Source: Alphaproteobacteria bacterium (GTDB taxonomy: Bacteria; Pseudomonadota; Alphaproteobacteria; SP197). From it: a DNA stretch of 64,000 nucleotides. Positions 40,546-40,730 of this stretch are shown here, one piece after another (the stretch's first letter is position 1; the number at the start of each line of letters is the position of its first letter). The DNA lies in contig OZ245842.1 of assembly GCA_965228895.1 (NCBI GenBank), positions 3,488,001-3,552,000 on the forward strand, written 5' to 3'. The position numbers were made by a program, and so were the translations under genes. The notes under the pieces were generated by a model. It had not been told where the DNA came from and ran no database searches. It was given only the letters and a program-made list of their open reading frames with translations.

Positions 40546-40560
40546 CGGTTCTCTCCTCAT

Positions 40561-40730
40561 CCCTGGCCATCTTGACGCCGAAGCGTACCCAATCTCTAAC
40601 CAATAATGCGTTGCCCAGCTGATCAGACAGTTGCAACCAACCGGTCAACTCCCGGACAACCTGAGATGGCTCACGGGGTAGTCCCGAGATGCCACTTAGG
40701 GTCGTCGTGAGGAGATCCCTATTGCCAGGG
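40561..40730 (-). ncRNA. Candidate retron msr/msd-like structured RNA
   Basis: Terminal arms CCCTGGCAAT / ATGGCCAGGG (9 of 10 complementary); internal hairpins at 40655-40706 and 40629-40650; ACGC-UUCG-GCGU tetraloop hairpin at 40575-40586. Confidence 0.65.

Follow-up and report, generated by a model that had tools for sequence, protein, structure and literature searches.

In type I toxin mRNAs such as hok, tisB, and aapA1, a small hydrophobic peptide is encoded behind a Shine-Dalgarno (SD) sequence that pairs over a long range with the 5' portion of the message and is thereby closed, leaving the primary transcript inert for translation. Among systems built around a reverse transcriptase (RT), a study of Retron-Vpa2, a Type VI retron, describes a hybrid RNA that joins msr-msd to a small toxin open reading frame (ORF), with both the ribosome-binding site and the start codon located in stem-loops; the multicopy single-stranded DNA (msDNA) is reported there to be required for toxin translation, by derepression, and the Type VI operon order is given as noncoding RNA (ncRNA), small protein, helix-turn-helix (HTH) protein, RT (10.1101/2025.10.22.683967). 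DRT2 (UG2), as described in PMC12039810, combines a 425-amino-acid (aa) RT with a pseudoknotted ncRNA of 280 nucleotides (nt), and its ORF arises only from concatenated complementary DNA (cDNA). Here we present an analysis of a self-contained module of ~1.15 kb, composed of a promoter, a leader of ~190 nt, a 38-aa peptide, and a 262-aa RT, that lies in a 64,000-nt stretch of DNA (hereafter the window) from an Alphaproteobacteria bacterium of the GTDB lineage SP197 (GCA_965228895.1, contig OZ245842.1, positions 3,488,001 to 3,552,000 of the forward strand). Feature coordinates throughout are window positions, and the leader, the peptide, and the RT are all encoded on the minus strand. A preliminary description of this locus had proposed that competing folds of the leader gate translation of the peptide. 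We find two long-range helices, A and B, that exist, covary, and cross, and the SD is located inside helix B across the family. The reading we favor, and hold to be probable, is that the leader (40730-40543) carries a ribosome-binding site that would be closed by a pseudoknot of these two crossing helices, within a three-part module.

Two crossing helices in the leader

Helix B pairs an anti-SD strand, UCUCCUCA (40708-40715), with the SD region of the peptide, UGAGGAGA (40552-40559). The two strands are exact reverse complements over 8 base pairs (bp), so that the same 8-mer is read on the plus strand at 40552-40559 and on the minus strand at 40708-40715. On the minus strand the leader reads CCCTGGCAATAGGGATCTCCTCA at 40730-40708 and GCCAGGGATGAGGAGAGAACCGATG at 40567-40543, the latter being parsed as GCCAGGG-A-TGAGGAGA-GAACCG-ATG. 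Helix B is present in the minimum-energy fold, both for 40735-40540 (-75.7 kcal/mol) and for a transcript starting at 40730 (-72.5 kcal/mol). The window alone gives modest support for this helix: the octamer has three matches on the two strands of the 64-kb window where 1.59 are expected, and three or more matches arise in 22 of 100 shuffles. From that expected count, the chance of the octamer falling in the right ~170 nt on the right strand is estimated at about 0.002.

Homologous loci were collected by pattern scans of genomes (160 confirmed RT relatives, best 80 kept) and metagenomes (251 confirmed RT relatives, best 80 kept). The region upstream of the peptide ATG in 47 leaders was aligned with MAFFT and fitted to no structure. 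A covariance model built from the 47 leaders was run on two groups of sources and recovered the element on the same strand as the RT and directly upstream of it in 90 of 100 sources of one group and 52 of 61 of the other (142 of 161 in total), many of them outside the seed; 134 of the 142 matches were complete, and these provided a set of 118 distinct full-length leaders. As the register of helix B varies between clades, duplex energies were used in place of column counts. For each locus, the best duplex (RNAduplex) was determined between the stretch leading from helix A to the GUCAC hairpin and the stretch leading from the 3' strand of helix A (A') to the ATG, and cognate segments were compared to segments swapped between loci under identical optimization. 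The cognate energy was -14.27 versus a permuted -10.41 ± 0.36 kcal/mol in the 47 loci, -14.85 versus -10.51 ± 0.23 kcal/mol in the 118 loci, and -15.99 versus -11.34 ± 0.65 kcal/mol in 17 mutually dissimilar representatives, with 0/20,000 permutations reaching the cognate value in each set. Judged by sequence comparison, a conserved helix occluding the ribosome-binding site exists, and it lies far beyond chance once homologs are considered.

The paired segments differ between loci outside the SD core, as in CCUCAUCA/UGAUGAGG, CCUCCAUU/AAUGGAG, CCCUUUCA/UGAAAGG, CUUUAUCU/AGAUAAGG, and GGUUCUUCC/GGGAGAACC (anti-SD/SD), and the complementarity extends over 7-11 bp. The anti-SD directly follows the AGG motif in alpha-type leaders (the window and loci L081, L013, and L029); in beta/gamma-type leaders it follows a hairpin and pairs with the SD region as in the alpha type. 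Pairing takes in 3 nt or more of the SD core in 114 of the 118 distinct leaders, and the gap between A' and the 3' strand of helix B (B') ranges from 0 to 9 nt, with 3 nt the most common.

Helix A pairs CCCUGGC (40724-40730), at the transcript 5' end, with GCCAGGG (40561-40567), which is located one nt upstream of the SD octamer. The two heptamers are exactly complementary and form 7 bp. The corresponding alignment columns (7-13 with 201-207) are paired in 90% of cells, and six of the seven pairs change on both sides in a compensatory manner, with C-G at 17 and U-A at 16 for one pair and C-G at 21 and U-A at 19 for another. In 500 shuffles, none matched the observed 23-pair leader structure, and sliding the partner by 1-3 columns reduced pairing from 86% to 30-43%. 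The nearest fetched relative, L081, has CCCUAGC/GCUAGGG at the place of CCCUGGC/GCCAGGG in the window. Immediately after helix A, G predominates, but several loci, the window among them, have A or U at this column, and an invariant A-G is found 3-4 nt further on. RNAalifold applied to the leader alignment recovered helix A in part only. The alternative it offered, in which GGCG (columns 11-14) pairs with the yGUC that opens the GUCAC hairpin (69-72), is conserved with almost no double changes and was not adopted; this pairing may represent an alternative contact for the 5' strand of helix A.

A sigma-70-like promoter is found on the minus strand at 40737-40766 (TTGAAA, an 18-nt spacer, and TATTAT) with a predicted start at ~40731-40729. 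As this promoter ends at 40737, the transcript would start at the first bases of the helix A 5' strand. In homologous loci a -10-like TANNNT hexamer ends 4-10 nt before helix A in 90/116 cases, versus 17/116 in shuffled controls, and where the hexamer is present its distance to helix A is 6 or 7 nt in 80 of 90 loci; this position suggests that transcripts of the family begin at helix A. The region 39500-41000 contains two promoter-like predictions, which have in common the TTGAAA hexamer that precedes the leader at 40766.

Along the RNA the strands are ordered A, B, A', B', and the helices therefore cross, with no nucleotides in common. The preliminary description had put forward the 8-bp complementarity, a transcript 5' end at this point, an a1/a2-like helix adjacent to the SD, and the non-nested arrangement of the two. 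Each of these proposals was borne out here, the 5' end by its fit to the predicted promoter, and the covariation of both helices that it had looked to homologs for was found, with the anti-SD/SD complementarity retained across the 118 distinct loci.

Proposed closure of the ribosome-binding site

In the mechanism we propose, the transcript would start at the helix A 5' strand and its first seven nt would pair with the seven nt just upstream of the SD, closing the leader in a way that resembles the a1/a2 helix of retron RNAs. The CU-rich segment located slightly further in would pair with the SD itself as helix B, crossing helix A. With A and B formed together as a pseudoknot, the ribosome-binding site would be closed and peptide translation kept low, as would be translation of the RT through termination-reinitiation coupling, and the opening of helix B by some factor would be needed for higher expression. 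We prefer the pseudoknot because A and B do not compete for nucleotides, and lean toward their joint formation because both partner strands should be free when A' and B' leave the polymerase. The repressive effect of the pairing, the coupling of RT to peptide translation, the coexistence of A and B, and a role of the module in defense or as a toxin are what we infer beyond the helices themselves.

Energy calculations were performed for 103 loci. Under nested folding, structures with A forced had -53.0 and those with B forced -51.4 kcal/mol (difference -1.6 ± 4.8 kcal/mol), and helix A was part of the unconstrained optimum in 34 loci and helix B in 55, with the remaining 14 loci containing neither helix. 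The window itself yielded -70.6 kcal/mol with A forced and -69.7 kcal/mol with B forced, relative to its minimum of -72.5 kcal/mol. When helix A was held and helix B added at an assumed pseudoknot penalty of 9 kcal/mol, the estimate differed from the nested optimum by +0.4 ± 4.9 kcal/mol and was the lower of the two in 48/103 loci; for the window it was -75.9 versus -72.5 kcal/mol for the nested fold. The modeled energies thus do not distinguish a switch between two states from a pseudoknot, and they do not favor the two-state picture over the pseudoknot.

Several observations weigh against closure by a pseudoknot as the function of this leader. The fold of the window is not unusually stable (z -1.78), the RNAduplex energies used for helix B take no account of competing local structure, and the near-equal nested energies of A and B would, within these models, also fit a switch. 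By our own geometric reasoning, a coaxial arrangement of A and B looks strained, as A' is separated from B' by 0-5 nt and A from B by either a hairpin or 8 nt. The segment from A' to the ATG is only ~15-25 nt long, and a helix placed there can hardly miss the SD; overlap with the SD therefore does not count separately in favor of translation control as the function under selection. Codon-level selection on the peptide is also weak, with 96 synonymous versus 244 nonsynonymous changed codons in 25 pairs.

The preliminary description treated A and B as mutually exclusive states, such that RT binding, or reverse transcription with RNase H, would free the anti-SD and allow a toxic peptide to be translated, making the cDNA an activator. 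We regard this as unlikely, though it is the strongest of the alternatives. The crossing of the helices and the near-isoenergetic A-forced and B-forced folds in both window and family would suit it, and it has a precedent in Retron-Vpa2, the order leader-small ORF-RT being similar to the ncRNA-small protein-HTH-RT order of Type VI (10.1101/2025.10.22.683967). However, A and B have no nucleotides in common, only sterics could force exclusivity, and any exclusion between them would be geometric. The local CCCU/AGGG hairpin assigned to the OFF fold is without comparative support: it is paired at 66.5%, versus 66.6% in shuffles, 335 of 500 shuffles reach its level, and no covariation was detected. 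A search of the intervening RNA identified no covarying alternative partner for either the anti-SD (cognate -8.15 versus permuted -8.88) or the SD (cognate -9.17 versus permuted -9.01, reached by 905/5,000), and a direct-repeat toehold of the Type VI kind is accordingly not seen there. With the hairpin at shuffle level and no covarying partner, no sequence-encoded alternative state was found. By retron geometry, as set out in PMC7736814, the anti-SD would also lie on the msr-like 5' side, which would not be copied. What survives of the competing-fold proposal is that a conserved SD-occluding helix makes gating physically plausible; the part that calls for two distinct states is not separated by the energies.

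A somewhat weaker alternative is that helix B is mainly architectural, a pseudoknot that shapes and stabilizes the RNA bound by the RT, similar to those of other RT-associated ncRNAs, with the SD caught by proximity and any translational effect a by-product. The shortness of the 3' segment, in which overlap with the SD occurs in 114 of 118 leaders, would be expected under this explanation, as would the clades that pair the SD-to-ATG spacer and not the SD core (L056, L066, L078). The DRT2 ncRNA is described as holding its RT by a pseudoknot (PMC12039810), and a base-paired 5' terminus could in addition protect the RNA. Against this, helix B would occlude the SD once formed, whatever selected it, and between clades the anti-SD has shifted relative to the neighboring hairpin while keeping its SD partner, where a purely architectural element would more likely have kept a fixed place. 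This explanation is accordingly doubtful in our view.

Still less probable is that the leader is cut between A' and B' and acts in trans, the CU-rich segment of the RT-bound RNA blocking the SD of a separate peptide mRNA in the manner of a type I antitoxin. Complementarity of 7-11 bp and its covariation fit cis and trans pairing alike, and the gap between A' and B' would offer a place for the cut. There is no sign of processing, though, no separate promoter for a peptide mRNA was found in 39500-41000, and on general grounds pairing in cis is kinetically favored. The idea that the 8-bp complementarity is a chance match of a CU-rich stretch with a purine-rich SD, to which the commonness of SD-like and anti-SD-like words, the octamer counts, and the unremarkable fold z-score might lend weight, is contradicted by the cognate-versus-swapped comparisons in all three locus sets and can be set aside as extremely improbable.

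Leader motifs, peptide, and reverse transcriptase

From 5' to 3', the leader is composed of the CCCGGC strand, a GAUAGG motif, a GUCAC-UnU-GUGAU hairpin, a variable body, a GUUGGUU motif, a GCGC hairpin, the GCCGGG strand, and the SD; beta/gamma-type leaders carry an AUAGGCn/nGCCUAU hairpin after GAUAGG, followed by the CU-rich segment. The window version of the first motif is AAUAGGG (40717-40723), in which A17 and G18 are invariant and G19 nearly so in the 47 leaders. Our guess is that this motif takes part in RT recognition or priming. The second motif is UUGGUU in the window (40598-40603), single-stranded, with T135 and T139 invariant and T134 and T138 nearly invariant. The short hairpin ACGC-UUCG-GCGU (40575-40586; consensus GCGC-loop-GCGC) is 95.7% paired, and three of its four pairs change on both sides. 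The GUCAC-UnU-GUGAU hairpin (columns 70-83) and GUUGGUU (columns ~155-161) are strongly conserved in the alignment, and the window leader is divergent at the GUCAC hairpin, scoring 54.7 bits compared to up to 130 for other leaders. These leader motifs are conserved across three proteobacterial classes. Rfam had no match to the leader in the window at the gathering threshold, the sole match at that threshold being a cobalamin riboswitch at 2132-2328 on the plus strand (109.8 bits). At E<=10, the region 40400-40800 gave three chance-level microRNA or small nucleolar RNA matches only, and the leaders of 10 homologous loci gave none at E<=0.1.

The small ORF at 40429-40545 (ATG at 40545) encodes 38 hydrophobic aa plus a stop, with a maximum Kyte-Doolittle 15-aa mean of 2.43 and an Asn-Tyr pair near the C-terminus. 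In most loci a short hydrophobic ORF overlaps the RT start or ends within ~35 nt of it, and in most homologous loci the peptide and RT ORFs overlap by 4-35 nt. A profile hidden Markov model (HMM) built from 48 peptides matched at E<1e-3 in 73/81 sources, 25 of the 73 outside the training set. Only M1, N34, and Y35 are invariant in 51 aligned peptides. Asn-Tyr is present in 108 of 118 loci, and as both tyrosine codons are in use (TAC in 58, TAT in 50), the constraint on Asn-Tyr acts on the protein. The case that the peptide is coding is drawn from conservation of the ORF, the MKK start, and the Asn-Tyr motif with its synonymous tyrosine codons. An invariant Asn-Tyr would be unusual for a mere membrane peptide and hints at a specific contact or chemistry; one guess is that the tyrosine serves as a protein primer for the RT. 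A predicted peptide-RT complex scored 0.02, relative to a mark of 0.32, which counts neither for nor against binding. In a few loci (L040, L043, L065, L067, and L069) the leader and RT are kept and the intervening ORF falls outside the peptide HMM, as in L040 (2488-2858), where it is 61 aa and acidic; these ORFs may encode diverged forms of the peptide or replacements for it. The peptide ORF of the window also contains a terminator-like hairpin with a T-rich tail (40482-40498, minus strand), the sole one in 39500-41000; shuffled versions of this region contain 1.6, so it may be a chance occurrence.

The RT (39632-40420) is a 262-aa protein with a single reverse transcriptase domain (PF00078, E 8.4e-19). 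With a TTG start 8 nt past the peptide stop and no SD of its own at a suitable distance, the RT is probably translated in a manner coupled to the peptide and would be under the same gate. An AlphaFold2 model of the protein (predicted local distance difference test, pLDDT, 96.0; predicted template modeling, pTM, score 0.89) was compared to the PDB with Foldseek, and ranks 1-11 were all occupied by retron RTs (E 9.5e-14 to 4.1e-11, template modeling score TMq 0.65-0.73), with Ec86 (7v9x_A, E 9.5e-14) and Eco7 (9kjx_A, TMq 0.73) among the top matches. The RTs of DRT9, G2L4, group II introns, and diversity-generating retroelements (DGRs) rank below the retron RTs, and DRT2 is at rank 36 (TM 0.53). 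PADLOC returned only generic RT-core matches to this protein, the best at ~1e-16; RT_VI matched in the RT core only (E 3.9e-11, 40.8 bits), and RT_IX, II-A, I-B, III-A, and X all scored above it, each likewise at a generic level. NCBIfam matched only St85 retron RT, at 58 bits where the cutoff is 235, along with group II, TIR-retron, Drt3a, and Ec67, and each of these models fell well short of its cutoff. No Drt2 model was present in the NCBIfam matches or among the 25 PADLOC matches listed, and no specific model of either collection fits the RT.

Retron RTs carry the signatures NAXXH in region X, where H is the most conserved residue, and VTG in RT7, where G is the most conserved, according to PMC7736814. 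Neither was found in an alignment of 37 RTs of the present family. Between the FF motif and LPYGF the sequence is xAxxFAxASTV with no invariant or nearly invariant H, and AFNI occupies the VTG position, with F197 and N198 invariant and no conserved G. Because these signatures are absent, the RT is described here as retron-like and is not filed as a retron.

Relatives of the RT form 471 protein clusters at E<=0.001 among 1,970 candidates and are mostly 250-290 aa long (nearly all of the 120 listed). The RT was present in only one of 61 related genomes, that of the window, so no near-identical leaders were at hand for fine-scale covariation; a metagenome scan aimed at the closest clade of the window (22 proteins with 51-58% identity) returned one near locus, L081, at 49%. 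Across 81 loci there is no conserved neighbor gene, the largest neighbor cluster being found in 10/81 on varying sides, and the unit is therefore the leader, the peptide, and the RT. The module is horizontally scattered. Relatives of the RT (31-45% identity) are found on nine plasmids of Rhizobiales, Roseomonas, and Pantoea, annotated merely as "reverse transcriptase domain-containing protein," with two unannotated. In the window, the module occupies an islet of ~1.2 kb with ~49% GC in surrounding DNA of ~65% GC, between phage-tail or type VI secretion system (T6SS)-type baseplate genes and a gene for a tetratricopeptide repeat (TPR) protein. The baseplate genes, Phage_GPD followed by Phage_base_V (37776-39610, plus strand), end convergent with the RT, 22 nt from the RT stop, and the islet is inserted at the end of this cluster. 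Contigs from three sequencing runs, compared to 39600-40800, matched the window exactly or covered it in part, with no variants, joints, or ends; no RNA run was among the sequencing runs listed as containing the locus. In a Marinobacter locus (L007), positions 6187-6479 of the plus strand match D1-D4 models of a group II intron, with 129.6 and 51.9 bits; this intron is located ~2.4 kb from the RT module, on its downstream side.

A more far-reaching account can be offered, which we hold with little confidence: that these loci represent an undescribed, widespread kind of retroelement in which a terminal pseudoknot gates translation of the operon, and RT loading or infection-triggered cDNA synthesis opens the site and frees a membrane-active peptide. 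In a bolder variant, the invariant tyrosine of the peptide would be the protein primer of the RT, and opening of the gate would supply that primer.

Relation to known systems

The comparative evidence assigns a structured RNA and a gene for a small peptide to a large family of minimal RTs that has no name; neither Rfam nor the specific models of PADLOC and NCBIfam detect this family. No description of the RT family, its leader, or the Asn-Tyr peptide was found in the literature; supplementary RT classifications (e.g., with PMC7736814 and PMC9226505) could hold a name for the clade. Being small and self-contained, the module makes the question of whether reverse transcription activates translation accessible to a simple reporter, and a minimal RT with its RNA may be of interest for engineering retron-type tools.

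Compared to canonical retrons, the module has an RT fold that is closest to the solved retron RTs, an RNA immediately upstream of the RT whose ends are paired by helix A in the manner of a1/a2, a conserved purine motif just after the 5' strand of this terminal helix, and a sporadic, island-like distribution. It differs in having AxxFAxAST and AFNI in place of NAXXH and VTG, in the size of its RT (250-270 aa, versus ~270-370 aa for the matched solved chains and ~570-580 aa for the Eco2 fusion), and possibly in the nucleotide that follows helix A, which is mostly but not always G. We know of no retron with a pseudoknot that takes in the SD, and none was found in the literature.

Type I toxin mRNAs share with the module a small hydrophobic peptide and an SD that is paired with the 5' part of its own mRNA. 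Unlike these systems, no antisense RNA gene turned up here, although no search aimed at one was made, and the leader is tied to an RT gene, with motifs conserved in three proteobacterial classes. DRT2 (PMC12039810) is similar in its RT without extra domains, its upstream structured ncRNA with a pseudoknot, and its hydrophobic coding unit of ~40 aa. The RT of the present module is 262 aa, however, its peptide ORF is genomic, and DRT2 ranks low among the structural matches.

There are also parallels with Type VI retrons. In both, a structured RT-associated RNA is followed on one transcript by a small ORF with a base-paired ribosome-binding site, a long-range helix of the a1/a2 type is formed, the operon has its RT gene downstream, and the small protein has a hydrophobic helix; sequestration of the ribosome-binding site is achieved here by placing the SD in helix B, and a template role of the leader is putative. 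In Retron-Vpa2 the ribosome-binding site is held in local stem-loops, with an inverted repeat contributed by the 3' end after the ORF (10.1101/2025.10.22.683967), whereas here the SD pairs with the transcript 5' end across the terminal helix. The cDNA toehold proposed in the same study (10.1101/2025.10.22.683967) has no counterpart here, as no covarying repeat usable for this purpose was found. The peptide of 38-50 aa with its Asn-Tyr differs from the Type VI auxiliary proteins, which are 75-79 aa in PMC7736814. The peptide stop (40429) and the RT start (40420) are too close together to accommodate an HTH gene, and the RT lies outside the Type VI clade, its RT_VI match being generic; the locus therefore does not group with Type VI retrons by operon order or by RT clade. 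A structured, RT-associated RNA that sequesters translation of a small ORF is already known, and the present module is a further form of it. With this module, concealment of the ribosome site of a small ORF by an RT-associated RNA is seen in a second, independent lineage, a logic so far shown only for Type VI retrons.

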